From a virus (Duplodnaviria > Heunggongvirae > Uroviricota > Caudoviricetes): a DNA stretch of 64,000 nt. The notes under the pieces were generated by a model that searched no databases, had not been told where the DNA came from, and saw only the letters and a list, made by a program, of their open reading frames with translations. This document shows, in pieces, positions 10,095 through 59,570 of the stretch. Within the stretch, counting starts at the first letter, position 1; each line of letters begins with the position of its first letter. The translations under genes were made by a program, and so were the position numbers. The stretch spans positions 13,280-77,279 of IMG/VR virus record IMGVR_UViG_3300033142_000627. One strand, written 5' to 3'.

Positions 10095-10128
10095 TATTTT
10101 GTGTTCTCTCTTCACTCAATCTATGGTT

Positions 10129-16095: not shown

Positions 16096-16099
16096 TGTT

Positions 16100-16130
16100 C
16101 CATTATACAGGTCCGACCAGTGGAGTCAAG
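16100..16130 (-). promoter_or_regulatory. Early promoter cassette 5 (TTGACT-16-TATAAT)
   Basis: -10 at 16102-16107, -35 at 16124-16129, placed 7 nt upstream of the ORF start region. Confidence 0.6.
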
Positions 16131-16132
16131 AG

Positions 16133-25203: not shown

Positions 25204-25478
25204 TAAGATTTTCCTTTCCTATATTCGATCTCACATAATTCTCCAGGCAACATCTTGTAACGTTTTGAACCGTCAAGAACAACACCGTTTTCAAGGCCAA
25301 TAGAATAACCTCTTGTCCATTCTGTAGTATAGTTGTCACAGACAATTCTCGATTCTCTTGAAATCATATCATCATAAACAACAACAGAGGACCACATCAT
25401 ATAGACAAGCATCGAAATTGTTCCAATAGAAAACGTTATCCAAAAAGTATCCCAGAATCGATCACTATTTGTTCTCAA
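25203..25478 (-). CDS. Small membrane protein (91 aa)
   Basis: N-terminal TM helix. Confidence 0.4.
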   Translation of the reverse strand: MRTNSDRFWDTFWITFSIGTISMLVYMMWSSVVVYDDMISRESRIVCDNYTTEWTRGYSIGLENGVVLDGSKRYKMLPGELCEIEYRKGKS

Positions 25479-26349
25479 GACTATTCTCCCAGTTCTCTTT
25501 CATACGTTCTTGAAGCATTGCAGCAACAACCTTGCTCAAAGGACCACAAATAGACCTACGGTTATCTTCTTGACCTTCGTTCTCTTTGATGAAATCTTCC
25601 CAAGCGTCTTCAATGATGCCTTTGATATAAACACCAAGTTGCTTCTTGTCCTCAATCTCACCTTCTTTTGAGATGAACGAAAGCATCCTATTCTCATTCA
25701 CGAATGGGAACATAGGATTGTCCTCGATAGGAGTGATAACCCTTGGCTTCTTCTTCGAGTTGTCCTTCTCGGAAAACTTCTTAGACTTCAGCTTGATGGT
25801 CATTGGATTACCAAAACGGTCAATCATCACATCATTGTAACCAGTGATAACAATTCCTTCGGCAGGATGTTTCTCATCAATCAACAGAGTGTCGAAATCC
25901 TCCACATCAAACTCAATAGCTTCTTTGAGAGTCATTCTTCCTATTTCCGAATGAACAAGTTCTGGGTATCCAATAGCGGTCATGTAGATAGCGAATTGTT
26001 GTTTGCTCTGTAGAACACCATCAATTGTCATGGCGTAGAAAAGTACCCGAGCATCTCCGTAGGGGATACGTTTCAGAATCTTACTAGAGAACACCTCCCC
26101 GTAGATATTGACGTTCTTGTGTAATGACATCACTTTGTTGATGAACTCTTGTGGTACAAGTTCACCAAGATTATTCCATGTTGGATCAACCTTCTGATTT
26201 CGTGACGCAAAACTCCAATCAGCATCTCTCACACAAAGAGACATATTAGAACCGTCGATCTTCTCAGAGATTGATACCATGGCGTTCATGTGTTCGTGTG
26301 ATAGAACTGTTGAATGTAGATTGTCCAAACTATTGAATTTAATAAACAA
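25465..26349 (-). CDS. rnlB: RNA ligase 2 (Rnl2-like)
   Basis: N-terminus MFIKFNSLDNLHS matches T4 Rnl2 MFKKYSSLENHYNS. Motif I EKIDGSN. Confidence 0.8.
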   Translation of the reverse strand: MFIKFNSLDNLHSTVLSHEHMNAMVSISEKIDGSNMSLCVRDADWSFASRNQKVDPTWNNLGELVPQEFINKVMSLHKNVNIYGEVFSSKILKRIPYGDARVLFYAMTIDGVLQSKQQFAIYMTAIGYPELVHSEIGRMTLKEAIEFDVEDFDTLLIDEKHPAEGIVITGYNDVMIDRFGNPMTIKLKSKKFSEKDNSKKKPRVITPIEDNPMFPFVNENRMLSFISKEGEIEDKKQLGVYIKGIIEDAWEDFIKENEGQEDNRRSICGPLSKVVAAMLQERMKENWENSLENK

Positions 26350-35619: not shown

Positions 35620-35825
35620 TCTTCAAAAACCTTCGCTCCGAATACAGGCACACAATGTTTGTCTCTTGGTAATGATTTTTCACATTCTACAATAGACTGA
35701 TTTGTTTGTGTGCCATATTCATATACAGGCGTTTTTTTCATTATCCACATTCCAAAAAACATTGAAATGATAACCGCCCAGACAAAAGCGAGAAGGATTC
35801 CATTGTTGTTCATTGTACTCTCCAA
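35616..35825 (-). CDS. Small membrane protein (69 aa)
   Basis: TM helix. Confidence 0.4.
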   Translation of the reverse strand: MESTMNNNGILLAFVWAVIISMFFGMWIMKKTPVYEYGTQTNQSIVECEKSLPRDKHCVPVFGAKVFEE

Positions 35826-36913
35826 TTAACATCTTTAAAAATAAACTCACGGTTCTTAAACACGAAAGTCTTGTAGTTAACATCTTTGCCTAACCACTTC
35901 TGCATCACCAAGGAGAACACATCAGACATATCCTTTTGACCTTTGATAGCAAAGTCCTTACGTTCAAGTTCTTTGTTGTTCTCTACGAACTCTTCCACTC
36001 TAGCAACAATATGATTGTACTTGTGGAATACCATTTCTTCAAAGTCGTCAATGATCTTGATAGTCAATGGGTCATCATGGAACAATGAACGTAGGTCATC
36101 AGAACCTTCCTCAAGAACACAACCAAGAAGTCTCTTTGGATGATTCACATCGTCCTTAGCATGATGCAACTCAACGTAACGGTCAGTCTTGCACTTCACC
36201 TTGTGTTGTGACACAGGATGTTGGAATACAAAACCTTCGATAACAGTACCATCTTCGCCTTTCATAGCGGCAACATCTTCCATCTTGATATCTGTTTCGT
36301 ATTTTACCCAATACTTTTTTAGACTAGGAGATGGATCTCTCAAATATTTCGCCGGCATGTAATCGCCATATTTTCGATTACGCACATTCAAGATAACAAG
36401 TTTTGTTTCTGGATAAAGAATGACGATACGGTTATTAGGAGATACAATCTCCATATTAATGGTGTAACCTTCTTCTTCAATCTCTAATAAGATAGCTTTG
36501 AATTTTGGTTGTGTGTTTAACCAAATCTCAGCAAGATGTACTTGGTCAGAGTGTAGAGAACCTTTAGTCTTCAATCGAAGATTTCCTTTAACGTCAAGAT
36601 AGGTAGAGATAAGAGAGCCATCCTCTTTAACCATAATCTCGGTGTATTCGTCCCAGTTAGTCTCTTCATGTTCAGGCCATTGATTGCACTCACCATGATT
36701 CCAAAACTTTTCCATCGGGCGAGATACAATCTCTCCGTCACGGAACATAATACCACGCGCCTCTATTGCGCCTGGTTCTTGGAAGTCGGTGTATGATGCA
36801 AGACGATACAAAAAGATTTCGTATGTCGAACCATCATCACCAGATTGGGTGGACTTGTAGAACGCCTCGTTGTTTTCAACAAGGTCGTTTAAATTTTCGT
36901 ATAACGTTTTCAT
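35810..36913 (-). CDS. rnlA: RNA ligase 1 (T4 gp63 / Rnl1-like)
   Basis: VSRPMEKFWNHG and KEDGSLISTYLDVKG match T4 Rnl1 ASRPMEKFFNL and KEDGSLVSTYLDG. Confidence 0.85.
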   Translation of the reverse strand: MKTLYENLNDLVENNEAFYKSTQSGDDGSTYEIFLYRLASYTDFQEPGAIEARGIMFRDGEIVSRPMEKFWNHGECNQWPEHEETNWDEYTEIMVKEDGSLISTYLDVKGNLRLKTKGSLHSDQVHLAEIWLNTQPKFKAILLEIEEEGYTINMEIVSPNNRIVILYPETKLVILNVRNRKYGDYMPAKYLRDPSPSLKKYWVKYETDIKMEDVAAMKGEDGTVIEGFVFQHPVSQHKVKCKTDRYVELHHAKDDVNHPKRLLGCVLEEGSDDLRSLFHDDPLTIKIIDDFEEMVFHKYNHIVARVEEFVENNKELERKDFAIKGQKDMSDVFSLVMQKWLGKDVNYKTFVFKNREFIFKDVNWRVQ

Positions 36914-37621: not shown

Positions 37622-37695
37622 CCATTATACAGGTATCATTGGGAGAGTCAAGAGTTTACGTAAGTGGTTGATTTTGCATAGTATTTCTATGCAAA
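37622..37695 (-). promoter_or_regulatory. PeSL-like cassette 10 (TTGACT-16-TATAAT plus a 9-bp stem-loop TTTGCATAG/CTATGCAAA)
   Basis: -10 at 37624-37629, -35 at 37646-37651, hairpin at 37673-37695 that contains the stop codon of the upstream gene. Confidence 0.6.
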
Positions 37696-38487
37696 CAAGT
37701 CTTCCAGTGAACCTTCTTTTGTCTGATTTATGTTCTTGAGGTTGTATTTTGCGTCTTCAAACGTGAACGGCGGTTGGTCAATCTGAATCTTAGGTCGTTC
37801 TGTCTTGTCGAACCATGCTAGATCCTTCTCTTTAGGATAGTTCAATCCCCAAGTCATAGTAGAACCACGTTTCATCAGCTTCTTCGCCTTCTTATTCAGA
37901 GGCCAAATATATCTGAACATATAACCCTCAATGAACTTGATGTTTTTGGACTTCATAAAGGGTCTGGTCATCCAGAACAACTTCTCTTTGCCTTCAAAGA
38001 TAGCGTTCTCTTTGAGTAATCCCTTTGTGCTTCTTGGATGCAACTTCTCGCCATTCTCCATCATATAGACTTGAGTGAGATATTTTTCACCAAAGTAGGC
38101 ATTAGAGGCCTGATAGACATAACCTACCTTGCCCATGATTCCATCCGCCATGGTGTATAGGAATAACTTCTCTGGATATTCTTTCTTCAACCACTTGATG
38201 GTCTGAGAGACCATCTGCGATTCACTATTGCGCGGCATATCATCATCCATGCACATCTTGCCGATTTCAAAATAAGATTCTGTGCCCAATCCGGGAAACA
38301 TCTTATTGATAGTCTGTCGTGGTTGAGTTCCCCATCCTAAGGTAAGGACACCAACAAGTTCATCTTCAAGATAGAAACCAAGAAAATGTTTTGTGATTGA
38401 GGGGAATACAGGAGAATAGTGGTACTTCTGCACAAACTCCATGGCCTTCCATTTAGGAAGGTCACGAATTAAGAAGTTATACTTCAC
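37687..38487 (-). CDS. Hypothetical protein (266 aa)
   Basis: Long ORF. No confident motif. Confidence 0.5.
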   Translation of the reverse strand: MKYNFLIRDLPKWKAMEFVQKYHYSPVFPSITKHFLGFYLEDELVGVLTLGWGTQPRQTINKMFPGLGTESYFEIGKMCMDDDMPRNSESQMVSQTIKWLKKEYPEKLFLYTMADGIMGKVGYVYQASNAYFGEKYLTQVYMMENGEKLHPRSTKGLLKENAIFEGKEKLFWMTRPFMKSKNIKFIEGYMFRYIWPLNKKAKKLMKRGSTMTWGLNYPKEKDLAWFDKTERPKIQIDQPPFTFEDAKYNLKNINQTKEGSLEDLFA

Positions 38488-38768
38488 TCTTTATTCGCGA
38501 ACTCTTCGTATGCTTTGATGAAACGTGGGTCATTTCCGTCTGCCATTTCATATGAAATGATGTTATCATTCAACATCGAACGGAATCCATCTGCGACCAA
38601 GTCATACGCGACTGTTACATCTGGGTTTGGTTTTCTGTCTGTGCCTTCTTTCTTCTCAGGCAGCAAGTCAGAGTTTAGTGTACAGAACATTTCACGTTCA
38701 TCGCCGTTCTTCTTAACGAATACGGCACGCACTGGTCCTTCGACCAACATCTCTTTCAATGATTTCAT
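38484..38768 (-). CDS. Hypothetical protein (94 aa)
   Basis: Packed ORF. Confidence 0.45.
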   Translation of the reverse strand: MKSLKEMLVEGPVRAVFVKKNGDEREMFCTLNSDLLPEKKEGTDRKPNPDVTVAYDLVADGFRSMLNDNIISYEMADGNDPRFIKAYEEFANKE

Positions 38769-40067: not shown

Positions 40068-40628
40068 TTATTTATCTTGGTTGTATTGTTCAAAACCAAG
40101 TTTGCATATCCAGTATGCATCAACATAGTCGGAGATAGGGTTGCCGTGGGCAATCATACCAAACCTCTCGGAGATGTTGTCCTTTGTGTCCTCAACGAAC
40201 GACTCATACATCTTGTCTTTCTTTGAGTTTCCCTTACCTGTAGCATATTTCTTAATGACTGTAGGTGGGATTGCCTCAAGAGAGTAGTAATCTTTCCATA
40301 TGAGATGTTTTATTAGTCCAGCGTTCTCAGCAATGTGAAACACTTTTCCTGTTGAACCAAACGAATAGTCCTCTATGAACACCTTGTCTGGTTGCACGTC
40401 CTTGATTACATCCATAAAATACACAGCAAGATTATAGAACCTTTCTTGTGCCACTGTCCAATCAGGTATGGTTGACATATTGAACTTGCCTGTCGGGTCT
40501 TGTAGTGGTCGTTTCTTTGTACTGTAACAATAGAATTTACAATTGTCGTATGACCATTCATCGCCATCATGTACACACATCGCTGGTGATGACATACTAT
40601 AATCTATACCAGCTATAATCAAATCCAA
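40068..40628 (-). CDS. Possible RuvC-like Holliday-junction resolvase / RNase H-fold nuclease
   Basis: N-terminus LIIAGIDYSMSSPAMCV resembles RuvC IxGIDPG. VFIEDYSF supplies an acidic residue; the C-terminus SDYVDAYWICKLG resembles the RuvC DxxDAxAIA tail. Confidence 0.4.
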   Translation of the reverse strand: MDLIIAGIDYSMSSPAMCVHDGDEWSYDNCKFYCYSTKKRPLQDPTGKFNMSTIPDWTVAQERFYNLAVYFMDVIKDVQPDKVFIEDYSFGSTGKVFHIAENAGLIKHLIWKDYYSLEAIPPTVIKKYATGKGNSKKDKMYESFVEDTKDNISERFGMIAHGNPISDYVDAYWICKLGFEQYNQDK

Positions 40629-41055: not shown

Positions 41056-41487
41056 TTATTCTCCGTTATCTAATTTGGTGTACTTATCCACAATAATGCC
41101 TTGGGATTTAAGAAATTCTTCATCGGTCTGCGATTCAATATGTTCATAAACGATTCTGATAATGCCTGATTGTACAATCATCTTAGAACATTCGATATTC
41201 GGATAGTTGGTAGTGTATAATGTTGAACCATCAGATGATTCGCCGGTCATGGCCAATCGCAGAATAGCATTGGTAGTAGAGTGTATAACGGTGTCCTTTA
41301 GATTGCCGCGTTCGTCTTCACAATCGTTTACCATACCTTTCGGTTGGCCATTGTATCCCGCAGCAACAATGTTTCTGTCTCTAACAATTACAGAACCATG
41401 TTTGTACTCCTCACAATAAGACATTTCTGCGAATCTCTCAGCAATGTCCATAAAGAGGTCGTCATATCGTTGTCTAGTTTCCATCAT
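41056..41487 (-). CDS. dCMP deaminase-like protein with a degenerate active site
   Basis: VIVRDRNIVAAGYNGQPKG aligns to dCMP deaminase. The HAE motif reads HST and PCxxC reads PNIEC; both were re-translated from the DNA by hand. Confidence 0.65.
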   Translation of the reverse strand: MMETRQRYDDLFMDIAERFAEMSYCEEYKHGSVIVRDRNIVAAGYNGQPKGMVNDCEDERGNLKDTVIHSTTNAILRLAMTGESSDGSTLYTTNYPNIECSKMIVQSGIIRIVYEHIESQTDEEFLKSQGIIVDKYTKLDNGE

Positions 41488-41975
41488 TTACTCCACGAAA
41501 GATCAAGGTCTTCCATATATTCTTTTCTTAGTTGTATAAAGGCAGCGAATCTAGGCAGTGTTGTGATATCAAAGTCACCAACGTTATATGATAACGTCAC
41601 ATGAGGTTTATATTCATCAAAGTCATAGGTTGCGCCATGAGCATCCATCAGTTCTTGGTGTCTGTCAGTCATCCATTGTGACTCAACCTCCATCACCAGT
41701 GCGTTCTCCCCGTCTTTATTAGGCCACACATCAAATCCCTTGAAGACTGCTTGTTCTTCGATAGGACCTAAAGGGACGTAATTTTGGAGATGTTTTCTTG
41801 AGAACAACAATGTAGAATGAAAGTCATCAACACCCATAGTAGATGGAATCTTGTGTGTCTTAATGAACCATATCAAATCCTTTATAGTATCCCATGAGAA
41901 TCTAATACCTGCGTATGTTCCTTTCTGTTCCTCTGTGAGGAATTCCTTTACTGTCTTCATATTTACTAGTACCAA
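41484..41975 (-). CDS. 2H phosphoesterase (LigT / cyclic phosphodiesterase-like; candidate Acb1-like)
   Basis: Two H-x-T-x motifs, HSTLLF and HVTLSY, spaced about 70 aa apart in a 163-aa protein. Confidence 0.6.
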   Translation of the reverse strand: MVLVNMKTVKEFLTEEQKGTYAGIRFSWDTIKDLIWFIKTHKIPSTMGVDDFHSTLLFSRKHLQNYVPLGPIEEQAVFKGFDVWPNKDGENALVMEVESQWMTDRHQELMDAHGATYDFDEYKPHVTLSYNVGDFDITTLPRFAAFIQLRKEYMEDLDLSWSK

Positions 41976-42301
41976 ATTCTATGTTCTTCGTGGACACTTT
42001 CTTGACCACATTCGTTTTCAAATATGTACCAGTCTATATCGTCCGGCACCTCTACAATCTTTAGCTCACACCTTCTACTTATGTTATCTATACCAAGTTC
42101 GTCAACAACTCGCATTAGGTCTGAGTCGTTCCGCTTAATGTAACATAATGAATAATAATCAAACGGAGATCCATCAGACATAATATCATTGATAACGGCC
42201 ATTTCTTCAATCGCAGCTGGATTACCTAGTTCGATGAGTCTATCAAAGGCTTCTTTGGTTACACCGAACCCTCCAATAGATGTGTTAATCAATACTCTCA
42301 T
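41966..42301 (-). CDS. Hypothetical protein (111 aa)
   Basis: Packed ORF. Confidence 0.45.
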   Translation of the reverse strand: MRVLINTSIGGFGVTKEAFDRLIELGNPAAIEEMAVINDIMSDGSPFDYYSLCYIKRNDSDLMRVVDELGIDNISRRCELKIVEVPDDIDWYIFENECGQESVHEEHRIWY

Positions 42302-42621
42302 TGTTCTGTGTTTATCTCCATCATAGCGTCAAGTACATCGTGTGGTATATTGCTCCACTCTTTCAATTTGGTTAGTTTATTGTTTATTCCTCTGAAAAGT
42401 TTATCCTCATCCAGTTCATAAATGCCAGAGATAATGACCATCATTGCCATCAAATCAGCCATTTCCTTTCCTAAATTTTCTCTATTGGTCACTTTATCAG
42501 CAGGATTAGTGTCATCTATACCAAATCGTTTAATCTTGGATGCAACTTGAATCACCTCAGCACACTCCTCTTGGAGTATATCAAGTGCTTCATTTATTTC
42601 TTTATCTTTTAATGTTCTCAT
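42298..42621 (-). CDS. MazG-like / all-alpha NTP pyrophosphohydrolase (second copy)
   Basis: EECAEVIQVASKIKRFG helix and an acidic helical composition. Confidence 0.45.
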   Translation of the reverse strand: MRTLKDKEINEALDILQEECAEVIQVASKIKRFGIDDTNPADKVTNRENLGKEMADLMAMMVIISGIYELDEDKLFRGINNKLTKLKEWSNIPHDVLDAMMEINTEQ

Positions 42622-42848
42622 CGTATCTGTCCTGTGCTTAGGTTTATTTCAACCGGTGCATGTTTCCTTTCATATTCAAGAGCCTTTCTAATCTCATCAC
42701 CAAGTCGTTTGTATCTGGCAACCTTCTCTTCATAGGTTTCGTTGACATAGAAATCTTCAAGTTTCTTGACCAGTTTTTCTTGTTCTGGGTTTAACATAAT
42801 ATCACCATTGATGAGCAGCATTGGCAACAATTGCCACAATGGCAACAA
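42618..42848 (-). CDS. Hypothetical protein (76 aa)
   Basis: Packed ORF. Confidence 0.4.
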   Translation of the reverse strand: MLPLWQLLPMLLINGDIMLNPEQEKLVKKLEDFYVNETYEEKVARYKRLGDEIRKALEYERKHAPVEINLSTGQIR

Positions 42849-42947
42849 GTTCCAATCCCATCCATATTAATCTAATGTAACAACAGGTATCCGCTGTCTT
42901 CTTATCATCGGCACACTTAGGCGCCAGAGACTTACAGATTAGTCGTT

Positions 42948-43349
42948 TCAATGTTTGTTCTTAGGAAGATTCTCCATCTTCTCGTCCCACGCATCATCAA
43001 GTTTCATATCTCTAACGATAGGATATTGTGGCTGTAGATTATCCTTATAACAAATCCACTTGATAGAACCCCATTTCTTCGACGCTCTTGTGAGTTTATA
43101 TAGGTCGAACATCTCATCAAGGTCAGCACAATCAAAATTGGAATATCCCCACGCGAACACATCACTGGTGTTAACATATAAGGCGGTCGTGACAATACCA
43201 GTTTCATCATCTTTAACCGCATGAGGAACAAGATGTTCCTCGATAAGGAGAATCGCCAGCATCATGTTCTCGTCCGGTTCTTCTACTCCCTTATATTCGA
43301 ACATTACCTCATCTTCGTCTACACAATGTTTCACTCTACAATCTCCCAC
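42948..43349 (-). CDS. Hypothetical acidic protein (133 aa)
   Basis: Packed ORF. Confidence 0.45.
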   Translation of the reverse strand: MGDCRVKHCVDEDEVMFEYKGVEEPDENMMLAILLIEEHLVPHAVKDDETGIVTTALYVNTSDVFAWGYSNFDCADLDEMFDLYKLTRASKKWGSIKWICYKDNLQPQYPIVRDMKLDDAWDEKMENLPKNKH

Positions 43350-43603
43350 TCATCCCAAAGCATATCAAGTTGCGATGGTGTCCAAGGCACAATAGAACCA
43401 TCAGCAGTACGCATATCGATATGACCGTTGTATGTAATCTCAGTATCAGCAGGATAGATGCCCAATAGAGGTGCTCTATTTACCTTAAAAGTGGAACCAT
43501 CGACAAGGAAGACAAACATTCCAGTTCCGTTCCACGCTCGACTGGTTACTTTCTTGCCGGCTTTAATCTGTTTAATCGCCCATGCAAAATCTTTAAATTC
43601 CAT
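43331..43603 (-). CDS. DUF2829-like protein (Tad2-like candidate), 90 aa from the MEFKDF start
   Basis: MEFKDFAWAIKQIKAGKKVTSRAWNGTGMFVFL matches the DUF2829 N-terminal signature. The ATG at 43603 is TAATG-coupled to the upstream stop. Confidence 0.55.
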   Translation of the reverse strand: MEFKDFAWAIKQIKAGKKVTSRAWNGTGMFVFLVDGSTFKVNRAPLLGIYPADTEITYNGHIDMRTADGSIVPWTPSQLDMLWDEWEIVE

Positions 43604-44022
43604 TATTTTCTCCTGTTCCAAATATCTTTGGCTTCTTGTTCTGTGTAATAACTTCCTGTATGCACACAACCTCTTGTACAGGCAACATAATATTCCATAT
43701 CGCCTCCGTTCATCGTGGTCTTTATTGCGCCTTTAGCACCACACATAGGACACGATTCGAGTTCCTTTGGTATCCAACCGGCAATCCTACCACATCCTTC
43801 ACAAGGATGTGTCACATGACTTAAACATCCCGGATGACCACAAGGAAGACCGTCTCTTAATTCCTGATCACCATAGGCACAATCTGCACAATGACCAGCA
43901 CGTTTATCGCCAACAAAATAATCTCCACATTGCAGACACTTGTTTGAATAACCTCCAGGCGCCCACCAACCTCTAGCAGGTCGGCGGTCTTCTTTCATAT
44001 TGTCCCAATCTTCTTTATTCAT
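43603..44022 (-). CDS. Cys-rich zinc-binding protein with a Lar-like (restriction alleviation) C-terminus
   Basis: Multiple CxxC pairs. The C-terminus YYVACTRGCVHTGSYYTEQEAKDIWNRR resembles the Lar family ending ...EA...WN.R. Confidence 0.35.
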   Translation of the reverse strand: MNKEDWDNMKEDRRPARGWWAPGGYSNKCLQCGDYFVGDKRAGHCADCAYGDQELRDGLPCGHPGCLSHVTHPCEGCGRIAGWIPKELESCPMCGAKGAIKTTMNGGDMEYYVACTRGCVHTGSYYTEQEAKDIWNRRK

Positions 44023-44178
44023 AATTAATATCCATCATCAAAATCGATTTGTTCTAAAAGAAAGTGAGAATAGTCTACTAGACCTTTTATCTTCTCTTCT
44101 TCCTCTTTAGGAACAGTTATATAACCATACTCCAACAAAACGGTCAATGTGTCCATCATATCTTGAATCTTTTCATTA

Positions 44179-44355
44179 TCAAGATTCAAGACTCTTCTCC
44201 ATTATCTTTCCTGCAGCCTCAAGTTGTTCTTTAATCTTACCACATAGTATCAACTCATTAGAATCAAGAGCGATGTTTCCATGCTTAAGAATCTCTATAC
44301 GAGAATGACAATGTTTTCTATTAAGAGAACAAGTACATTCTCTCTTAATCTTCAT
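44179..44355 (-). CDS. Hypothetical Cys-rich protein (start revised to MKIKRE)
   Basis: The listed start overlaps the upstream ORF by 62 nt. Confidence 0.35.
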   Translation of the reverse strand: MKIKRECTCSLNRKHCHSRIEILKHGNIALDSNELILCGKIKEQLEAAGKIMEKSLES

Positions 44356-44362
44356 TGCGCCA

Positions 44363-44686
44363 TTACATCCAGCGATAAGTTTTTTCAAAGATTTCTTTAT
44401 CACAGATATATAGTTCATCATCAATTCCTCTCATAAGATAATCTCCAGGTTTGCCCTGTTTGTAATCGCCCTCAAGACTGTTAACTCTAAAATGTTCCTC
44501 AACTTGCATTGCATGAACCTCGATTGGTCTCTTCATACAAGTTGACATATCATCAACGACTTCAAATGTTTCAAATGTTTTCATACTATTTTCCTTTTCT
44601 GGGTAACAACAAGCAGAGAAATGGGTTATACCTTCTGTCGAATGACAAGAACATGTACAACCGTTATATGCGGGAGGAAGTGCCAT
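44363..44686 (-). CDS. Hypothetical Cys-rich protein (107 aa)
   Basis: CTCSCH...CC motif. Confidence 0.45.
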   Translation of the reverse strand: MALPPAYNGCTCSCHSTEGITHFSACCYPEKENSMKTFETFEVVDDMSTCMKRPIEVHAMQVEEHFRVNSLEGDYKQGKPGDYLMRGIDDELYICDKEIFEKTYRWM

Positions 44687-45273
44687 TAACTACACTTCGA
44701 GTAGTCACACTCACCATTCACACATTCCTCACAACCATCACTCTTAATAAGTGACTTCTCGCCACATACATGACACATCACAGCGTTAGGTGGGTATATA
44801 ACCTCTTTCTTCTCTGTATCTCTTAGATGTTCTTCTAAAGTGATACCAATTTCAGAGACAATAGACTTAATGTATTTGCCTTTTGACCAATAACCTCCAT
44901 TTGGGTCGACCACTGACTTGAGTTCATCAACAAGGAATTTGATATCTTCCTTATCCTCTTTACGCATCACAGCGGAGATAACTCTAGTGATAGCAGTTGT
45001 CCACTGGAAGTGAGTCGTGTCCTTTGAGTTAATAAAAATCTCAAAAGGATTTCCATCAACATCATCATTGATGGTGATATATGCTGATGCTGAACCCGGT
45101 GGTTTAATCTTATAAGTATAACCCTGTAGTTTTTCTTCTCTAACCTTTAGTACAGGTTTTACACGTTCGGCCGGTGCTGCCTCAGGCAACACCTCCACTG
45201 GTCTTAGTTTGGATTCGTCTGCATTTACTTTTAGAGAGACAATCTTTCCACTTAGTTTTTTAATTTCTGGCAT
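44686..45273 (-). CDS. nrdJ: Possible NrdJb-like C-terminal subunit of a split class II RNR (195 aa, C-terminal Cys cluster)
   Basis: Immediately downstream of NrdJa. The C-terminus CHVCGEKSLIKSDGCEECVNGECDYSKCS resembles the RNR C-terminal redox/zinc tail. Confidence 0.45.
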   Translation of the reverse strand: MPEIKKLSGKIVSLKVNADESKLRPVEVLPEAAPAERVKPVLKVREEKLQGYTYKIKPPGSASAYITINDDVDGNPFEIFINSKDTTHFQWTTAITRVISAVMRKEDKEDIKFLVDELKSVVDPNGGYWSKGKYIKSIVSEIGITLEEHLRDTEKKEVIYPPNAVMCHVCGEKSLIKSDGCEECVNGECDYSKCS

Positions 45274-45275
45274 TG

Positions 45276-47339
45276 TTATAGTTTCCCGTAGTATCCTTCT
45301 TTGATGGCGTCATATAGATTCGCCGCGGTGGTTTCTTCGCCTTCATACTCAATGATGTCATCACCTTGGAAAGTGTGTTCTTCGCCATCATCCATAACAA
45401 ATGTATATCCTGTATTCGCAAGGTCTTCTTTCTTTACCAATACCCCTTGGAAGTTTTCTGGATTGAATCTGAATGTTGTGCAACCCTTTAGATTCTGGTC
45501 ATAAGCATCCATGTAGATATCTTTAAATTCATCATAGTTAAAATCGGTTGGGATATTAACAGTCTTACTAATAGAGCTATCAATCCATTTCTGTGAAGCG
45601 GCCTGTACAGCGATGTGCTGTCTAGGAGAAATGTTGTCTGTTTCTCCCCATGTATCAGGAAGTTCTACAGATTCTCCAAACGTATGACGATACAGCAATG
45701 CTTCATAACTCCACACATCAACATTTTCCTTTGTCTTCTTTCCAGGTTTGATGATGTTACGGGTGTAGTGATGTGCAAAAGATGGTTCGATTCCATTAGA
45801 ACAGTTATTGTTAATAGATAACGCGATTGTACCTGTAGGAGCAATTGATGAGTGATGAGTGAAACGACAACCATCTTTACGAATATTGTCCCATAATTCA
45901 GGATTGGCCTTGCGAATCTTCAACATATAGTAAGAGAATACGAATAGTTCCTTACCCTTTAGTTTGTCTCCAATCTTAACTTTCTTATCACCGCCGCGAG
46001 TCTGATACTCTTCAAGCATTTTATGGTCAAGAACAAAGTCTTCTTCCATAATAGGCGCAGCACCTTTCTCAATAGCAAGTTCGTGACCAATCTTATAACC
46101 AGTCATGGCAATAATCTTAGAAACTTTCTCGGTGAATCTAACAGAAGCAGCATCACCATATGCCATACCCATCATGTTCATTGCTGAACCGAGTCCGAGA
46201 TATCCCATACCATGACGGCGTTTATGTGTGATTTCGTGTCGTTGACTCTTCAAAGGAAGACCATTGAATTCTACAACGTTGTCTAGCATACGTGTGAAGA
46301 TAGCAACAATCTCTTCAAATGCTTTCCAATCAAATGATGCGCGGGATGTAAATGCGTCTTTGATGAATCTTGTCAAGTTGACAGAACCAAGTAGACAAGA
46401 ACCGTCTTCTGGTAGAGGTTGTTCGCCGCATGGATTGGTTGCGCGGATGTTCTCACAGAACCAGTTGTTGTTCATCTTGTTCACTTCATCAATCAGAATG
46501 AATCCAGGTTCAGCAAAATCATATGTAGATTGCATGATGATATCCCACACATCTTTAGCCTTCATTGTGTCAAAGATGCGGTGTGCTACAAGATTAGTTT
46601 TCTCATCTCGTATAACATCACCTTCAACAACAGGCCAGTTTGGTTCTTTCCAAACATAGGCATCGTTCTCATCATATTCTTTCTTGTGTACAGGGAATAC
46701 AAAGTTCCAATCTTTGTTATCTTTAACGGCGTCCATGAACTCTTTGGTGATCAATAGAGATAGGTTGAATTGTCTGAATCGACCATCTTCGCGTTTCGCC
46801 TTGATAAAGTTGATTGCGTCAGGATGTGAGATATCAAATGTTCCCATCTGAGCACCTCTACGGCCGCCGGCAGAACTTACAGTGAAACACATCTTGTCAT
46901 AGATGTCCATGAACGACAATGAACCGGATGTTGTTGCGCCGACACCACCAACATGAGCGCCGCCTGGACGTAACACAGAGAATTCATATCCAATACCACA
47001 ACCCGCAGCGAGTGTAATGCCTGCTTGTTTGACACCTTCGAGAATTCCTGGCATCGAGTCTTCGATTGTAGATGATACTGTACAGTTGATTAATGATGTT
47101 GCTGGTTTATATTTTGATGCACCAGCGTTTGAGATGATGCGCCCAGCCGGTGTCGCGCCGCTTCGCAAGGCATATAAAAATGCTTCTTGCCAGGTGTCCT
47201 TTGACTTCTCGTTGGAAGCTAATGCAGCTGCAACTCTTAGAAAGGTTGCTTCGATATCTTTATCGATAATGTTTTCGTCTTTGTCTTTTAGTCTATACTT
47301 TTTATCGTATATGTCAAATGATGCTGGTTGTAAATCCAT
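45276..47339 (-). CDS. nrdJ: Class II (B12-dependent) ribonucleotide reductase large fragment NrdJa
   Basis: ATNPCGEQPL...CLLGSVNL active-site signature. Length 687 aa from the ATG at 47339; the listed 47438 start overlaps the upstream gene by 91 nt. Confidence 0.8.
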   Translation of the reverse strand: MDLQPASFDIYDKKYRLKDKDENIIDKDIEATFLRVAAALASNEKSKDTWQEAFLYALRSGATPAGRIISNAGASKYKPATSLINCTVSSTIEDSMPGILEGVKQAGITLAAGCGIGYEFSVLRPGGAHVGGVGATTSGSLSFMDIYDKMCFTVSSAGGRRGAQMGTFDISHPDAINFIKAKREDGRFRQFNLSLLITKEFMDAVKDNKDWNFVFPVHKKEYDENDAYVWKEPNWPVVEGDVIRDEKTNLVAHRIFDTMKAKDVWDIIMQSTYDFAEPGFILIDEVNKMNNNWFCENIRATNPCGEQPLPEDGSCLLGSVNLTRFIKDAFTSRASFDWKAFEEIVAIFTRMLDNVVEFNGLPLKSQRHEITHKRRHGMGYLGLGSAMNMMGMAYGDAASVRFTEKVSKIIAMTGYKIGHELAIEKGAAPIMEEDFVLDHKMLEEYQTRGGDKKVKIGDKLKGKELFVFSYYMLKIRKANPELWDNIRKDGCRFTHHSSIAPTGTIALSINNNCSNGIEPSFAHHYTRNIIKPGKKTKENVDVWSYEALLYRHTFGESVELPDTWGETDNISPRQHIAVQAASQKWIDSSISKTVNIPTDFNYDEFKDIYMDAYDQNLKGCTTFRFNPENFQGVLVKKEDLANTGYTFVMDDGEEHTFQGDDIIEYEGEETTAANLYDAIKEGYYGKL

Positions 47340-47347
47340 GCGGGCTC

Positions 47348-47701
47348 CTATTTTTGGTTCCAATATTTGGGTTTCTTTAAACAATTTTGAACAACTTCCC
47401 ATCCGCCCAATTCGTGCGTCAAGGTACATTGTGAACAATCTTTTCTTTTTACTCCTATCGGAGATTCAATAACTTCATAGTTTCCTGGACATTGTAGAAA
47501 TGCCAGAGGACAGTAACACATCAAACAATTCTGTTCTTGTCCTTCTTTTACATTGTGACAAGGATAGAACTCACACTCCTTATGAGAGAACCATTTATAC
47601 TTCTCAGTTTCAACGGTGTCTTTGGGTTCTACTCTTATCTTCATATATGGTACATTATATAGGTTGATGGGCGGGAATGTAAGGTCCGGCCAATTAACCA
47701 T
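47348..47701 (-). CDS. Cys-rich metal-binding protein (117 aa)
   Basis: FYPCHN...CLMCYCP...CPG...CSQC motif. Confidence 0.45.
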   Translation of the reverse strand: MVNWPDLTFPPINLYNVPYMKIRVEPKDTVETEKYKWFSHKECEFYPCHNVKEGQEQNCLMCYCPLAFLQCPGNYEVIESPIGVKRKDCSQCTLTHELGGWEVVQNCLKKPKYWNQK

Positions 47702-47894: not shown

Positions 47895-48959
47895 CTAAAC
47901 CTTTCTCCACTGATTAAATTTAGATAATCCCATTAAACCACTGAAAGCATTAGAGATTAAATATTCTGTTATTTTTTCTGGCGACCAATGATGATTCAAT
48001 ACAATATCATTGATATCTTCTCCAGTCTTAAATTTCTTGTTCCATAGTACTACTTTATGGCCGGATTGTAAAGACTTTTTCACTTTATCTACGATTGCCG
48101 TGTTTCTGGCGTCATTATCATACACCATGATGGCATCAGGGAACAAATCCATATACGACTCCAGATTGGAACCAGTGGCAGCGATGGCATTGTTCACGAA
48201 TAGAGAGTTGAGTGGTCCTTCGAGAAGGAGGATTGGTTTGGATTCGTCCACGGTGTCTAATCCGTAGATTTTAGGCATCTCATCATCAATTTTGATAGTG
48301 ATATACTTTGCTTTTGATTTAGGATTGAATGAACGACCTTGCATTGCGAACATCTTACCTTCCTTATCAAAGAACGGTATGACCAGTCTTGGTGTGTCGT
48401 ACTTTGTTGATTCAAAGGAACCACGTTTACAGAAGTTTGCGTAATCTTTGAACTTGTTTGTGTAGTATAGTCTATCGAGATATGGTTCAAGGCCTCTTTC
48501 ACGACAATATATTTTTGCTGGGTGATTATCATCAAGTCCAGATACTTTACGAACAAAGTTGTCTACCAGTAGATGATTGTATGTCTTATCAGATGTGAAG
48601 TCTAGGGCATGAGACACAAATGTTGGTTTCTGGTTCGCGAATACAGAATCATCGTCTTCTTTTATTGTTACTCTTTTCTTTGGAGCTCCGAATGACTCCT
48701 TGACGTATTCATTATATAGTGTATGGTCAATCTTCTTTAGGAAGGCACCAAACGGTAGAGATTCATTACATCTATAACAACCAGAGAACACCTGTCCTTT
48801 ATATATTTGGAAGTTGCCTCTAGTTACGTCAAGTTTATCCTTAGAGTCCCCACATATAGGGCATCGAAATGCCCATACGTCTTTCTTGACCTTATGGAAC
48901 TTCTCCAGTTTATGCGAAATCTTGTGTATATACTGGGTGTCTAGGAAAATGTCGCTCAT
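47895..48959 (-). CDS. 61: DNA primase gp61
   Basis: N-terminal zinc ribbon FRCPICGDSKDK. TOPRIM LLEGPLNSLFV...AIAATGS. About 354 aa, as in T4 gp61. Confidence 0.9.
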   Translation of the reverse strand: MSDIFLDTQYIHKISHKLEKFHKVKKDVWAFRCPICGDSKDKLDVTRGNFQIYKGQVFSGCYRCNESLPFGAFLKKIDHTLYNEYVKESFGAPKKRVTIKEDDDSVFANQKPTFVSHALDFTSDKTYNHLLVDNFVRKVSGLDDNHPAKIYCRERGLEPYLDRLYYTNKFKDYANFCKRGSFESTKYDTPRLVIPFFDKEGKMFAMQGRSFNPKSKAKYITIKIDDEMPKIYGLDTVDESKPILLLEGPLNSLFVNNAIAATGSNLESYMDLFPDAIMVYDNDARNTAIVDKVKKSLQSGHKVVLWNKKFKTGEDINDIVLNHHWSPEKITEYLISNAFSGLMGLSKFNQWRKV

Positions 48960-52206: not shown

Positions 52207-52662
52207 ATGAATTTATTAAAAGCAATAACTTTATGTTTTGTGATAAGTTTAGCTGGCAAACCATCAATAACACAGGCCGAGTTTTCCATACAACAGAACG
52301 AACTGGTAGGACCAGTACCTACTAAAGATACAAATTCATTCATCACTCAATATGAACTATATAACATATTCAGTTTTAATGAGACAGAAAGTTGGAACGG
52401 AGGTCGTATTGTGGTTGTAATGTTCGACATACACTCTAGGGAACACAAGAATTTTGTAAAAGATACCATTCTGTATCCTTGGAAGTCCTATATGAAGTAC
52501 GCTGAACGTAGATACAAGTCAGCTGATACTATTATTGTTAAGAACTATAGCGAGATGATAGAAGCAATCACATACAACTTGGGTGCTATTGGTTACTTGC
52601 CAAAAGGTAGTGTGTTGTACAATAGCAAACATAACGGAATTGTAGAGGTGAAGATTAGATAA
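52207..52662 (+). CDS. Secreted protein (151 aa, signal peptide)
   Basis: Signal peptide MNLLKAITLCFVISLAGKPSITQA. Confidence 0.5.
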   Translation: MNLLKAITLCFVISLAGKPSITQAEFSIQQNELVGPVPTKDTNSFITQYELYNIFSFNETESWNGGRIVVVMFDIHSREHKNFVKDTILYPWKSYMKYAERRYKSADTIIVKNYSEMIEAITYNLGAIGYLPKGSVLYNSKHNGIVEVKIR

Positions 52663-53363
52663 TGCCCGATTCATACATATATAAAATGGCGGATAAACAC
52701 AACGTAACTGTGGACAGAACAGAAGAGTTGTGGTTCAAAGCAAGAAAACTTGCTGCAGAGGCAGGTCACAAAGACGAATATGATTACATTACAGGAATAT
52801 TTAAGAAAATGATAGGCGAAGAGATGAACGAAGATTACTGGTCAGACTTTCCAGAAAAGATTGACGATAAGAAAGTACAACTATTCTTGGGTCGTATGCA
52901 ACCTATCCATAAGGGACACGATGCAATCATTAAGATGATGAAGAATCCAGTCGTTGTTCTTGTAAAAGGAAAGGAGTCTTCAAAGGACAAGTCAAGGAAT
53001 CCACTGGACGCGAAGTATCAGACCAAGTTGATACACAAACTCAACCCTAGAGCGATGGTCATTGTGGCGAAAACTGGTTACATTCCAGACACTATCTCAT
53101 TACTACGTGACCAAGGACTTGATGTTGATTTAGTATTAGCAGGCAACGACCGCATTGGTTCATATAAGAAACAGATTGATTCAGCGAATAAGAAACTTGA
53201 TGACTGGCAACAAATGGAAGTTAAGTATAAGGAAACGCCTAGAATTACATCAGCTACAGATGTTCGTAACGCTATTAAGAGTGATGACAGAGAGACATTT
53301 GAAAAGCTTGTCCCTAAGAAACTTCATTCTGAATGGGACAAACTACGCAAACTGGTTAAGTAA
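52662..53363 (+). CDS. NadM-type nicotinamide-mononucleotide adenylyltransferase-like protein (HxGH cytidylyltransferase fold)
   Basis: LFLGRMQPIHKGHDAII matches archaeal-type NMNAT GRFQPFHKGH. C-terminal ITSATDVRNAI matches the ISSTxIR motif. Confidence 0.6.
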   Translation: MPDSYIYKMADKHNVTVDRTEELWFKARKLAAEAGHKDEYDYITGIFKKMIGEEMNEDYWSDFPEKIDDKKVQLFLGRMQPIHKGHDAIIKMMKNPVVVLVKGKESSKDKSRNPLDAKYQTKLIHKLNPRAMVIVAKTGYIPDTISLLRDQGLDVDLVLAGNDRIGSYKKQIDSANKKLDDWQQMEVKYKETPRITSATDVRNAIKSDDRETFEKLVPKKLHSEWDKLRKLVK

Positions 53364-56940: not shown

Positions 56941-58023
56941 CTACCTTATCATTTGTATGTCGTCTGTATGTATATTATCCAAAGACCATACTTCAAGGTC
57001 CTTTTTTAATCTATCCTCAGAACGAAGTTTTTCCCAACGCTTTACAGATTTCTTTTTCCATATCGATATCATCTCTTCGCTAGATTTACTGATATTGTTA
57101 CAGTAATAGTAATTCTTCTTGGTTGTTATATTAGACTTCGTTTTTATCATATTAGAGAATTCATGGTATTTATCTATATCATGATGTTTTAATGAATTCT
57201 TTATTGTCCTGATAAGGCCATTAAATCTCTTTGTCTTTACTGAACTTGAGTTGACCGTTATGTTGACAACATGATTACCTTCATTCTCGGATTTGATGAT
57301 AATTGTTAACTTTTTGATAACATCATCAGAAGGGTACATCATCAGGTTTGAATCAGTTCTTACCTTAGACCTCTTTATAATGGGTTTAAGTCCATCGTAT
57401 TGAGAAGACTGTTTAATGGAACCATATAGACTGGTCGTTTCGAAGTATTGTATATCAGTGTCATACTTGTTGTTGAAACGGTCTCTTATGTCTGTAGATG
57501 CCGCTATTAGTGCAAGTAGTTTGCCGCCGAGATAGTTAAAACCAAACGGTTGAACCGGCACGATTACGATGCCATTATAGAAGGTACGGTTCAATTCTTC
57601 TGGTTTTATGACATAATCCAACATCGTGTTACGAGGTTTCATATTGATTGTCGGGGAAGACATCTTAATAAAACCTAATAACTTTTTCGTGTTGTTCTCC
57701 CACACCTTAACACACAATGACCGACCCGGAGTGGGCCCGACGACAAACGACGAAACGTATTGTAACTGATTATAATACTCTCTGTTCTCTGGTGTATACT
57801 CTAATCTAATGTCCATATCCATTGGAGACATATCATAATCATTAAAATATATATCAGAATACATGTGATTACCAAAAATGTCATAGGATTCCATATCTAA
57901 TAACTTGATTCCTTTTCTAATTCTTTGGTATTGTTCTATATCAGTAATATCAGCGTAAGCATCCATTAATATATCATAACACCTAAGTGTGTTACGTTCG
58001 GACAATATTAGTTTATCTACCAT
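56941..58023 (-). CDS. Unknown-function protein, paralogue A of a tandem pair (360 aa)
   Basis: About 60% identical by eye to ORF 58344-59570 over the whole length. Confidence 0.55.
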   Translation of the reverse strand: MVDKLILSERNTLRCYDILMDAYADITDIEQYQRIRKGIKLLDMESYDIFGNHMYSDIYFNDYDMSPMDMDIRLEYTPENREYYNQLQYVSSFVVGPTPGRSLCVKVWENNTKKLLGFIKMSSPTINMKPRNTMLDYVIKPEELNRTFYNGIVIVPVQPFGFNYLGGKLLALIAASTDIRDRFNNKYDTDIQYFETTSLYGSIKQSSQYDGLKPIIKRSKVRTDSNLMMYPSDDVIKKLTIIIKSENEGNHVVNITVNSSSVKTKRFNGLIRTIKNSLKHHDIDKYHEFSNMIKTKSNITTKKNYYYCNNISKSSEEMISIWKKKSVKRWEKLRSEDRLKKDLEVWSLDNIHTDDIQMIR

Positions 58024-58343: not shown

Positions 58344-59570
58344 TTACCTTATCATCTGAATTTTGTCACCAAGAACCGTATCTAGATCCCAAATCTCAAG
58401 TTCTGTACGAATTCTATCATCGGCTGCAAGATTGTCATATCGTCTTTGTGCCTTGCGTTTCCACCAAACAACCATTTCTTCAACGCTCTTATTAATGTTG
58501 TTGCAGTAATAGTAATTCTTTTTGGTAGTAATCTCCTTCTTCACAGCAAGGAACTCTTTCAAGTGGTCGTGTTTCTCCATATCATGTACCTTTAGAGAAG
58601 CATATAGACGCGAGAACATACCGTTCATTCGTTTCAACTTGACAGAACCACTATTTGCCTCTACGGCGTGTTGACCATTATTCTCGCTCTTGAAGATTAA
58701 CGCCATCTTTCCGAGAACTTCATCGGATGGGTACATCATAAGATTTGAATCTGTTTGTGCCTTACAACGGCGAATCATAGGTTTCAGACCGTCATACTGT
58801 GAAGACTGTTTGATTGATCCATATAAGCTGGTTGTTTCAAATGTCTGAATGTCAGTACCATATTTCTTATTGAACATATCACGTACATCAGTTGAAGCAG
58901 CGATTAACGCCATCAGTTTACCACCAAGGGCATTATAACCGAATGGTTGTACAGGTACAAGAATGATACCGTTATAGAACGTGCGATTCAATTCTTCGGG
59001 TTCAACGATTCTATCCATCATCACATTACGAGGTTTCATATTGAGAGTAGGTGAACCCAACTTCATAAATCCAAGTGTCTTGCCTGTGTTCGCCTCAACA
59101 GCGCGTAGGTGCAAGGTACGACCCGGTGACGGTACAATCGCCATAGAGGACACTACTTGTATCTGTTCATAGAAATCTCTTGAGGAGAGTTCTTCCACGC
59201 GGATTTCCATATCATCTGGACGCATATCATAGTCATTAAACAGAATATCGTCATACCATTCCGTACCATCGATAGACTGTGAAGAACCGGTCTTCATCAA
59301 CATCTCAAGTTTACGGAATCTCTGATATGATTCAATGTCGTGAAAGTTTGAGTAGTAGTCAATAAGAAGTTTATAACAGGCAATTGCCTTATCCTTAGGG
59401 AGAATCAACATCTCGCCTTCTTTTCTATCAGATTCGAATAACGCCTGTGGTTTTTCTGGTTGGTCCGGTTCTTTGTCCGGACGTTTGAACTTTCCTACTG
59501 TACTCTCTTTCTCAACGGCAAGGTCTTCGCCGAATAAATCTTGTGAACTCATAATATTTCCCATAATCAA
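58344..59570 (-). CDS. Unknown-function protein, paralogue B of the tandem pair (408 aa)
   Basis: Shares the blocks NRTFYNGI..VPVQPFG.N.LGGKL.ALIAAST and TKKNYYYCNNI with paralogue A. Extra 48-aa N-terminus. Confidence 0.55.
   Translation of the reverse strand: MIMGNIMSSQDLFGEDLAVEKESTVGKFKRPDKEPDQPEKPQALFESDRKEGEMLILPKDKAIACYKLLIDYYSNFHDIESYQRFRKLEMLMKTGSSQSIDGTEWYDDILFNDYDMRPDDMEIRVEELSSRDFYEQIQVVSSMAIVPSPGRTLHLRAVEANTGKTLGFMKLGSPTLNMKPRNVMMDRIVEPEELNRTFYNGIILVPVQPFGYNALGGKLMALIAASTDVRDMFNKKYGTDIQTFETTSLYGSIKQSSQYDGLKPMIRRCKAQTDSNLMMYPSDEVLGKMALIFKSENNGQHAVEANSGSVKLKRMNGMFSRLYASLKVHDMEKHDHLKEFLAVKKEITTKKNYYYCNNINKSVEEMVVWWKRKAQRRYDNLAADDRIRTELEIWDLDTVLGDKIQMIR

Follow-up and report, generated by a model that had tools for sequence, protein, structure and literature searches.

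A probable counter-defence-enriched block with Acb1- and Tad2-family genes in the replication arm of an uncultured T4-like phage

Do the small genes that lie between the ribonucleotide reductase (RNR) genes and the RuvC-like gene of an environmental T4-like phage form an anti-defence island, or are they ordinary genes of replication and nucleotide metabolism? The question is raised by a 64,000-nucleotide stretch of DNA, positions 13,280 to 77,279 of IMG/VR record IMGVR_UViG_3300033142_000627 (hereafter the window), in which a first-pass annotation had read a 2H phosphoesterase, a MazG-like protein, a DUF2829 protein and a Lar-like protein as a counter-defence island. The locus is probably an accessory block enriched in counter-defence genes, set within a long arm of co-oriented replication and nucleotide-metabolism genes in an uncultured T4-like phage, in which the products assigned to the Acb1 and Tad2 families are the principal members, and a MazG-like protein and a Lar-type zinc-ribbon domain are weaker candidates. 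As such it adds a clear further instance of an arrangement already known and does not represent a new kind of system. Comparison was made principally with a 22-kb contig from run SRR22936148 (L019), which was recovered by an exact-protein look-up of a deaminase homologue and is the sole useful close relative.

The 2H phosphoesterase matches the Pfam Acb1 model (PF23474) at 128.1 bits (E 2.7e-37; gathering threshold, GA, 27) across profile positions 1-142 of 144, and matches the Acb1 of Erwinia phage FBB1 (PDB 7t26) with E 1.6e-21, while gp57B of some 1,450 T4-like phage records is matched at ~40% identity. T4 gene 57B encodes Acb1, in which H44, T46, H113 and T115 form the catalytic tetrad, Y12, W74, F107 and W147 stack on the bases and E141 contacts the N6 of adenine (PMC9117128). 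All nine of these residues are identical when the window protein is aligned with T4 57B. The tetrad falls in HST (H53, T55) and HVT (H125, T127, in the numbering of a 163-aa product), which are invariant columns, and the lid of the T4 protein aligns with the C-terminal residues ...EDLDLSWSK. With the corresponding domain of the L019 orthologue the protein shares 72% identity, the proportion of non-synonymous differences (pN) being 0.18 and that of synonymous differences (pS) 0.72. The first-pass annotation had given a 163-aa open reading frame (ORF) at 41484-41975 with HSTL and HVTL motifs; the frame and its motifs hold, but its TTG start at 41975 is less likely than an ATG at 41960 (158 aa), because metagenome gene callers chose the latter and the TTG falls among the final codons of the gene upstream.

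In comparison with T4 57B and the FBB1 enzyme (PDB 7T26/7T27), the window protein belongs to the same Pfam family with a full-length match, is 34% identical to T4 Acb1 and ~40% identical to RB49 gp57B, and shares the HxT/HxT tetrad, the four base-stacking aromatics, the adenine-contacting Glu and the lid Trp. It is also of similar size (158 against 152 aa), and likewise comes from a T4-like phage in which it adjoins nucleotide-metabolism genes. Unlike those enzymes, it is divergent, its nearest cultured homologues being only 41-42% identical proteins of Pseudomonas and Ralstonia phages, and its gene is flanked by a pseudo-deaminase and a MazG-like gene, whereas T4 57B is flanked by 57A and gene 1. 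The conserved residues predict an enzyme that should cut cyclic di- and trinucleotides on the 3' side of adenosine, in a metal-free reaction that passes through a 2',3'-cyclic phosphate intermediate. Such a metal-independent 2H phosphodiesterase would remove the second messenger of CBASS, the antiphage signalling based on cyclic oligonucleotides, before its effector fires. The Acb1 of L019 (8397-9350, plus strand) is a longer protein of 317 aa with the Acb1 domain in residues 172-316; its 170-residue N-terminal region has no Pfam or PHROG match and may serve as an additional domain for binding or regulation.

The DUF2829 protein is a single domain that matches the Pfam Tad2-like model (PF11195) at 73.7 bits (GA 25) through residues 5-89 of 90. 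Its matches in the PDB are ModTad2 (8v3e/9eib; 60 bits), SPO1 Tad2 (8sme; 42 bits), HgmTad2 (42 bits), the structure of which was deposited as a type II CRISPR-Cas inhibitor, and AcrIIA7 (36.6 bits). The study of SPO1 Tad2 identified W25, N26, W73 and D79 as the main contacts of 1''-3' glycocyclic ADP-ribose (gcADPR), with further contacts at I63, T65, D67, H71, S76 and T78. Window residues W24, N25, T66, D68, W74, S77 and D80 keep the SPO1 residues W25, N26, T65, D67, W73, S76 and D79 respectively, and three peripheral positions are changed (I63 to M, H71 to V and T78 to L). Identity with the L019 orthologue is 59%. Like SPO1 Tad2 (Gp34.65), ModTad2 and HgmTad2/AcrIIA7, the protein consists of one DUF2829 domain of ~90 aa, 35-36% identical to SPO1 Tad2 and ModTad2, and in the pocket that holds ADP-ribose signals it retains the contacts made by Trp-Asn, Trp and Asp; it departs from SPO1 Tad2 in two adenine or water contacts (the changes at T78 and H71), and from both solved homologues in a two-residue insertion in the middle loop. 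Membership of the Tad2 family and a sponge mechanism are therefore well supported, so far as sequence can indicate. As a predicted tetramer, the protein would trap a TIR-derived ADP-ribose signal, whether 3' cyclic ADP-ribose/gcADPR, histidine-ADP-ribose (His-ADPR) or N7-cyclic ADP-ribose (N7-cADPR), and possibly cyclic nucleotides too, and this sequestration would block Thoeris-type immunity.

Both genes belong to a run of genes between ~38.9 and 48.9 kb in which every credible gene is on the minus strand, the block itself sitting between the RNR genes and the RuvC-like gene. The four ORFs singled out by the first-pass annotation (41484-41975, 42298-42621, 43331-43603 and 43603-44022) are all present on this strand. 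From the upstream flank onwards the genes are as follows.

47895-48959, minus strand: primase, in the upstream flank.
47348-47701, minus strand: 117-aa 'zf-like' gene (PF04071), between primase and RNR.
45276-47438, minus strand: RNR catalytic (large) subunit, with RNR large-subunit Pfam domains and a match to phrog_84 (E 6.5e-125).
44686-45273, minus strand: separate TSCPD-domain protein (PF12637).
44363-44686, minus strand: PGDYG-domain protein of 107 aa (Pfam PGDYG 30.1 bits), the upstream edge of the block; kept in L019.
44179-44418, minus strand: small ORF of 79 aa, which overlaps the PGDYG gene at its 3' end; conserved in L019.
44025-44189, minus strand: ORF of 54 aa, a variable slot, with no family match and no L019 counterpart.
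43603-44022, minus strand: Cys-rich protein of 139 aa, with an N-terminal zinc ribbon and a C-terminal Lar-type domain.
43331-43603, minus strand: Tad2-family (DUF2829) protein of 90 aa (PF11195).
42948-43334, minus strand: conserved protein of 128 aa, whose GTG start overlaps the Tad2 stop.
42618-42848, minus strand: ORF of 76 aa, a variable slot, with no Pfam match.
42298-42621, minus strand: MazG-like NTP pyrophosphohydrolase, all-alpha, 107 aa, whose start overlaps the upstream stop (ATGA-type).
41966-42301, minus strand: 111-aa protein, absent from L019, where the slot holds an S-AdoMet lyase.
41484-41960, minus strand: Acb1-family 2H phosphodiesterase, 158 aa from the ATG (PF23474).
41056-41484, minus strand: degenerate dCMP-deaminase homologue of 142 aa, whose start overlaps the Acb1 stop by 1 nt.
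40068-40628, minus strand: RuvC-like resolvase, beyond two small zinc-ribbon-like ORFs and followed by an M15 peptidase.

At most junctions in the block the stop and start codons overlap or lie a few bases apart, and because the genes are so tightly packed they are probably co-expressed with the replication genes. The sole sizeable intergenic gap, at 42848-42948 (~100-150 nt), separates the 128-aa and 76-aa genes; it holds two copies of the direct repeat TTGTTGCCA and, just upstream of the 76-aa ORF, a short hairpin (TTGCC-ATTGT-GGCAA). Two gene models in the vicinity merit comment. The longest RNR ORF (720 aa, TTG start) overlaps the 117-aa zf-like gene by ~90 nt, and its true start is probably further downstream since metagenome gene calls give an RNR of 687 aa. 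The 79-aa ORF covers the last ~56 nt of the PGDYG gene; a 66-aa ORF of L019 has equal position and overlap (40% identity, E 5e-17), and the 79-aa ORF is probably a real overlapping gene.

The window encodes a T4-type set of proteins, comprising gp32, gp59, RNase H, DsbA, a late-transcription coactivator, UvsX, primase, DNA ligase, Rnl1, Rnl2 and a gp41-type helicase, the last being 45-48% identical to those of cyanophage and Stenotrophomonas T4-like phages. A megablast search of window positions 41.0-45.3 kb against 50,697 phage records gave zero nucleotide matches. This protein set, together with the lack of a cultured nucleotide match, identifies the source of the window as an uncultured T4-like phage. 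Segments identical to the window are present in Joint Genome Institute (JGI) metagenome 3300033155 (L001 and L020); scans of the window for tRNAs and Rfam families, made for host clues, found none. When IMG/VR and metagenome contigs were scanned with Acb1, TSCPD, RuvC and members of the 128-aa family, the relatives that came up were at most 51% identical, or there were none.

The Cys-rich protein of 139 aa begins with a conserved zinc ribbon (CxxC..CxxC), continues with a Cys/His cluster in its centre and ends in a Lar-type zinc ribbon at residues 86-139. The first-pass annotation had seen a likeness to Lar in a C-terminus given as ...EAKDIWNRR (the protein ends in ...EAKDIWNRRK), and residues 86-139 do match Pfam Lar_restr_allev (PF14354) at 34.9 bits (GA 28.6) over the whole 58-position profile, WNRR included; phrog_599, annotated as a Lar-like restriction alleviation protein, is also matched (E 2.9e-6). 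The likeness stops there in two respects, for the NCBIfam model anti_R_Lar (TIGR03655) gives 31.1 bits against a cut-off of 39.6, and the L019 orthologue, which shares residues 1-57 only, has no Lar domain. Lar proteins, such as that of the E. coli Rac prophage, are about as long as the 55-58-position profiles of the family, whereas here the 54 C-terminal residues, although they match the whole profile with two Cys pairs and the terminal WNRR, are the last third of a multi-cluster protein, fused behind ~85 residues with two more Cys/His clusters, and are not kept in the nearest relative. There is an even chance that the domain is a generic treble-clef or zinc ribbon with no role in restriction alleviation, and that the conserved function resides in the N-terminal ribbon, for example in nucleic-acid or protein binding during early gene regulation. 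The failed NCBIfam cut-off and the truncated orthologue both speak for this, as do the matches of the N-terminal part to unrelated PHROGs of unknown function and the restriction of cultured-phage matches to the N-terminal and central parts; the full-length Pfam match and the annotation of phrog_599 speak against it. No match to the protein was found among PDB sequences. If the resemblance is functional, the C-terminal domain would act as Lar does, alleviating type I restriction, and the protein is a weaker candidate for the block's counter-defence role than Acb1 or Tad2.

For the Tad2-family protein the doubt concerns not the family but the ligand. The first-pass annotation had pointed to gcADPR, the signal of type I Thoeris, which is one of several possibilities. 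ModTad2, the nearest solved homologue (60 bits against 42 for SPO1 Tad2), binds His-ADPR and cyclic UMP (cUMP), not gcADPR, and does not inhibit type I Thoeris; other members of the family bind N7-cADPR or CBASS dinucleotides, and Tad2 homologues together inhibit CBASS, Pycsar and three types of Thoeris. It is possible, if somewhat improbable, that the window protein targets such a signal (His-ADPR, N7-cADPR, cUMP or cyclic CMP, or CBASS dinucleotides) in place of gcADPR, or that it is an AcrIIA7-like anti-CRISPR. The replacement of SPO1 T78 and H71 by L and V would fit another ligand, and AcrIIA7 and HgmTad2 are matched as well (37-42 bits). However, the main gcADPR contacts equivalent to W25, N26, W73 and D79 are kept, most of the Tad2 homologues tested inhibit type I Thoeris, and the anti-CRISPR activity of DUF2829 proteins is without a demonstrated mechanism. 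Sequestration of a TIR-derived signal, with gcADPR among the candidate ligands, is the role that we favour.

The MazG-like protein is harder to assign to either camp. It passes the Pfam MazG model (PF03819) marginally, at 24.1 bits against a GA of 22, and its L019 orthologue, with 59% identity, reaches just 19.5 bits; phrog_4856, an NTP pyrophosphohydrolase family, is matched with E 7e-19. The acidic metal-binding motifs of the MazG family take the form ExxE...ExxD, and a pattern EExxE...ExxD can be read in the translation at QEECAEV and KEMADL. Phage homologues come from other lineages at 31-57% identity; among these matches no specific link to Atd1 was detected, and the search of PDB sequences gave no significant match. 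Atd1 of Pectobacterium phage PcCB7V is a MazG-like protein that breaks down (p)ppGpp by hydrolysis and confers protection from TIR-STING and retron-TIR. The window protein resembles Atd1 and cyanophage MazG in being a small, all-alpha MazG-domain phage protein with twin acidic motifs and a position near other anti-defence genes, and is unlike Atd1 in its borderline Pfam score and in the lack of a detectable close relationship. It could be an Atd1-type alarmone hydrolase or an enzyme for house-cleaning of deoxynucleoside triphosphates (dNTPs), the latter fitting equally well because the gene sits among RNR and deaminase-like genes. The MazG-like gene proposed by the first-pass annotation at 42298-42621 is thus upheld as a marginal family match with an anti-defence precedent. 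As a weaker candidate, the protein would either deplete (p)ppGpp in the manner of Atd1 or clean and reshape the dNTP pools.

The stability of the block can be judged against L019, which has the PGDYG gene, the small overlapping ORF, the zinc-ribbon protein, Tad2, the 128-aa gene, the MazG-like gene, Acb1, the pseudo-deaminase and a 56-aa ORF (62% identity) in the same order as the window. Conserved genes of the block are 58-72% identical between the two, compared with 82% for RNR, 73-76% for TSCPD and 66-68% for primase. All of the genes shared with L019 have pN of 0.11-0.27 against a saturated pS of 0.59-0.87, and because pN is well below pS these genes are evidently under purifying selection. 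The differences are confined to three or four variable slots in this comparison with one close relative. The small ORFs flanking the zinc-ribbon gene and one before MazG are non-homologous in the two sequences (the 76-aa ORF being unrelated to the 81-aa ORF at equal position in L019), and the 54-aa ORF has no Pfam or PHROG family match and no counterpart in L019. An extra gene of 212 aa is inserted after Acb1 in L019, and the slot of the 111-aa gene is there occupied by an S-AdoMet lyase (PF23780, 47 bits).

Two further proteins of the block are uncharacterised. The 128-aa family has just four members among 5.8 billion proteins, with the invariant motifs TSDVFAWGY and QPQYPIxRDMK; the window protein is 70% identical to its L019 orthologue, which likewise directly follows Tad2, and its AlphaFold2 model (predicted local distance difference test, pLDDT, 49) is unusable. 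An obligate pairing of Tad2 with the 128-aa protein was considered and is ruled out by a distant family member in L046 that follows an unrelated 87-aa gene. The 111-aa protein has a confident model (pLDDT 86), for which no counterpart was found among solved structures and which resembles uncharacterised viral proteins only.

Is this, then, an anti-defence island? Such islands have been documented with AntiDefenseFinder, three of them in T4, as at least two inhibitors of different defence systems within ~1-10 kb (PMC11724313). In the window the Acb1 and Tad2 genes are 1.4 kb apart, and a span of 6.3 kb also takes in the Lar-like, MazG and Mom candidates. Elsewhere in the window the only defence-related Pfam families found were an S-AdoMet lyase (11.5 kb), Mom (37.7 kb) and a DruA-like protein (57 kb); that scan of the remaining window used concatenated proteins, with glycine-serine linkers that gave spurious 'Serglycin' matches in two of three scans, and since concatenation reduced sensitivity for weak domains the lack of further weak anti-defence matches is not strong evidence. 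A run of seven adjacent genes, out of ~150, accounts for four of the seven defence-related genes, an arrangement seen in ~0.4% of random placements (P ~0.004 in a post hoc test). Like the documented islands, such as the three of T4, the block gathers several candidate inhibitors in ~1-3 kb among small unknown genes, and its content differs in part from that of its one close relative; unlike them, its core order is kept across ~20-40% protein divergence and it is interleaved with nucleotide-metabolism genes.

Several observations weigh against a counter-defence island. In the more distant contigs that carry Acb1, no homologue of the block's Tad2, Lar or MazG was found nearby, and two of these contigs (L014 and L045) also place Acb1 beside or between primase and RNR; this appears to be an old position of the gene, so that part of the co-location may be inherited gene order and not a selected island. 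The S-AdoMet lyase of the window is 30 kb away, so counter-defence genes are not confined to the block. To these must be added the borderline match of the MazG-like protein, encoded among nucleotide-metabolism genes (RNR, TSCPD and deaminase-like), the Lar-type domain that misses its NCBIfam cut-off and is missing from L019, and a promoter and terminator scan with counts no higher than in shuffled sequence, which leaves co-transcription to rest on gene packing.

Taken to their conclusion, these points would mean that there is no dedicated island at all, but only ordinary early genes of replication and nucleotide metabolism, among which small early genes cluster anyway, the MazG-like and deaminase-like proteins serve dNTP metabolism and Acb1 has long been linked. 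The flanking primase, RNR, TSCPD and RuvC-like genes on one strand, the gene order kept in L019, and the position of T4 57B next to gene 1, which encodes a dNMP kinase, are consistent with this explanation. We nonetheless consider it unlikely: the concentration of defence-related families in seven consecutive genes speaks against it, a variable slot of L019 carries another anti-restriction-type gene in the S-AdoMet lyase, and neither Tad2 nor the Lar domain has a known role in nucleotide metabolism. We read the block instead as an accessory locus that is stable, is enriched in counter-defence genes and has a few slots open to exchange, and not as a mobile or hypervariable element, because L019 keeps the order and differs by insertions and replacements. 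What survives of the island proposed at first is the co-clustering of Acb1 and Tad2; mobility and hypervariability do not, the locus appearing as a stretch of the replication and nucleotide-metabolism arm in synteny with L019.

The gene for the degenerate dCMP-deaminase homologue comes directly after that for Acb1. The protein matches Pfam dCMP_cyt_deam_1 at 59.6 bits, and its best solved match is the dCMP deaminase of cyanophage S-TIM5 (4p9c, 87 bits), the HAE of which is replaced by HST and PCxxC by PNIEC, so that the catalytic Glu and one zinc-binding Cys are lost, in agreement with the degenerate active site noticed in the first-pass annotation. The L019 orthologue has DPT and PDMAAC, and has lost the zinc-binding His too. 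When 1.84 billion cluster representatives were searched exhaustively and the best matches compared (151 sequences with the window protein included), 146 of the 149 others had canonical H[AS]E and PCxxC, and both motifs were degenerate only in the window protein and its L019 orthologue. Yet these two are 65% identical with pN 0.22 against pS 0.74, and the loss of motifs in both orthologues despite purifying selection marks the protein as a conserved pseudo-enzyme, not a decaying gene. It is like the dCMP deaminases (S-TIM5 4P9C; T4 cd) in fold, in size, in being phage-encoded and in adjoining nucleotide-metabolism genes; having lost the catalytic Glu and also the first zinc-binding Cys, it does not qualify as an active deaminase. 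A domain match to NF041025 (47.6 bits) indicates a fold common with the catalytic domain of anti-phage dCTP deaminases, which would allow a counter-defence role as a decoy or dominant-negative against AvcD-type enzymes, or else as a non-catalytic nucleotide binder; such a role for the pseudo-deaminase itself seems to us quite unlikely. Were it true, the 128-aa and 111-aa proteins would become new anti-defence families by guilt by association.

That the 2H protein is instead a LigT/ThpR-type RNA- or tRNA-repair cyclic phosphodiesterase, partnering phage RNA ligases and having no anti-CBASS role, is extremely improbable: it could appeal to a fold common to both families, to the PHROG label of the family ('RNA ligase') and to the wealth of RNA-repair genes in the window (Rnl1, Rnl2, RlaP, HAD_SAK_2), but the LigT-type models score below threshold (2_5_RNA_ligase2, PF13563, 20.7 bits, GA 27; TIGR02258, 18.2 bits, cut-off 65.7) where Acb1 scores 128, the label is a historical misannotation of T4 57B, a gene shown to encode Acb1, and the Acb1-specific base-stacking residues, adenine-reading Glu and C-terminal lid Trp are all kept. 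The profile scores and residues thus settle in favour of an Acb1-family enzyme, and against LigT, a choice that the first-pass annotation had left undecided; it had named placement of the 2H protein with LigT only, and failure to detect DUF2829, as outcomes that would count against its proposal, and the hidden Markov model (HMM) searches produced neither.

The RNA-repair genes of the window form an extensive set. Those at 14969-17028, 25465-26349 and 35810-36913, all on the minus strand, encode Rnl1, Rnl2, a HAD_SAK_2 phosphatase, a YspA-type SLOG protein and a calcineurin-like phosphoesterase, while an RlaP-type nucleotidyltransferase is encoded at another place in the 22-50 kb stretch; the set may counter anticodon-nuclease defences.

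Other defence-related products are encoded outside the block. A Mom-family DNA-modification protein (37687-38487, minus strand; Pfam PF25680, 177 bits; phrog_1384, Mom-like, E 3e-37), which the Pfam scan of L020 also recognises, is an anti-restriction candidate 3 kb downstream of the block. It is overlapped and preceded by a WYL_2 (Sm-like/SH3) gene (38484-38768, minus strand), and just upstream of this pair the sequence has a hairpin resembling a terminator (38872-38849) and a promoter-like site close to consensus (38841-38813). The S-AdoMet lyase family protein (11498-12097, minus strand; PF23780, 38.9 bits) is 31% identical to the lyase inside the L019 block. Two paralogues at 56941-58023 and 58344-59570 (both minus strand) match phrog_19197; the first of them matches Pfam DruA, a Druantia defence protein, at 43.9 bits (cut-off 27), which is unexpected in a lytic-type phage genome. 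A 233-aa protein (52662-53363, plus strand) is cytidylyltransferase-like (PF01467, 28 bits), with a GRMQPIHKGH motif reminiscent of NMN adenylyltransferases, and may have a part in NAD salvage, although the window showed no Nampt-like partner. Two guesses made by eye fared less well: a second MazG at 17589-17924 is not supported by the Pfam scan, and an HD/SpoT-like hydrolase at 9642-10115 has a below-threshold score only.

The finding leaves the current understanding of how the Acb1 and Tad2 systems work unchanged. Studies of specificity gain diversity from the divergent sequences of Acb1 and Tad2, and the variable slots, the pseudo-deaminase, the 128-aa and 111-aa proteins and the N-terminal extension of L019 Acb1 are candidates for screening for new anti-defence functions. 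Acb1 and Tad2 are extended to a sparsely sampled environmental lineage of T4-like phages, in which one phage appears to be equipped against both CBASS (cyclic oligonucleotide) and Thoeris (TIR/ADP-ribose) signalling from one compact locus.

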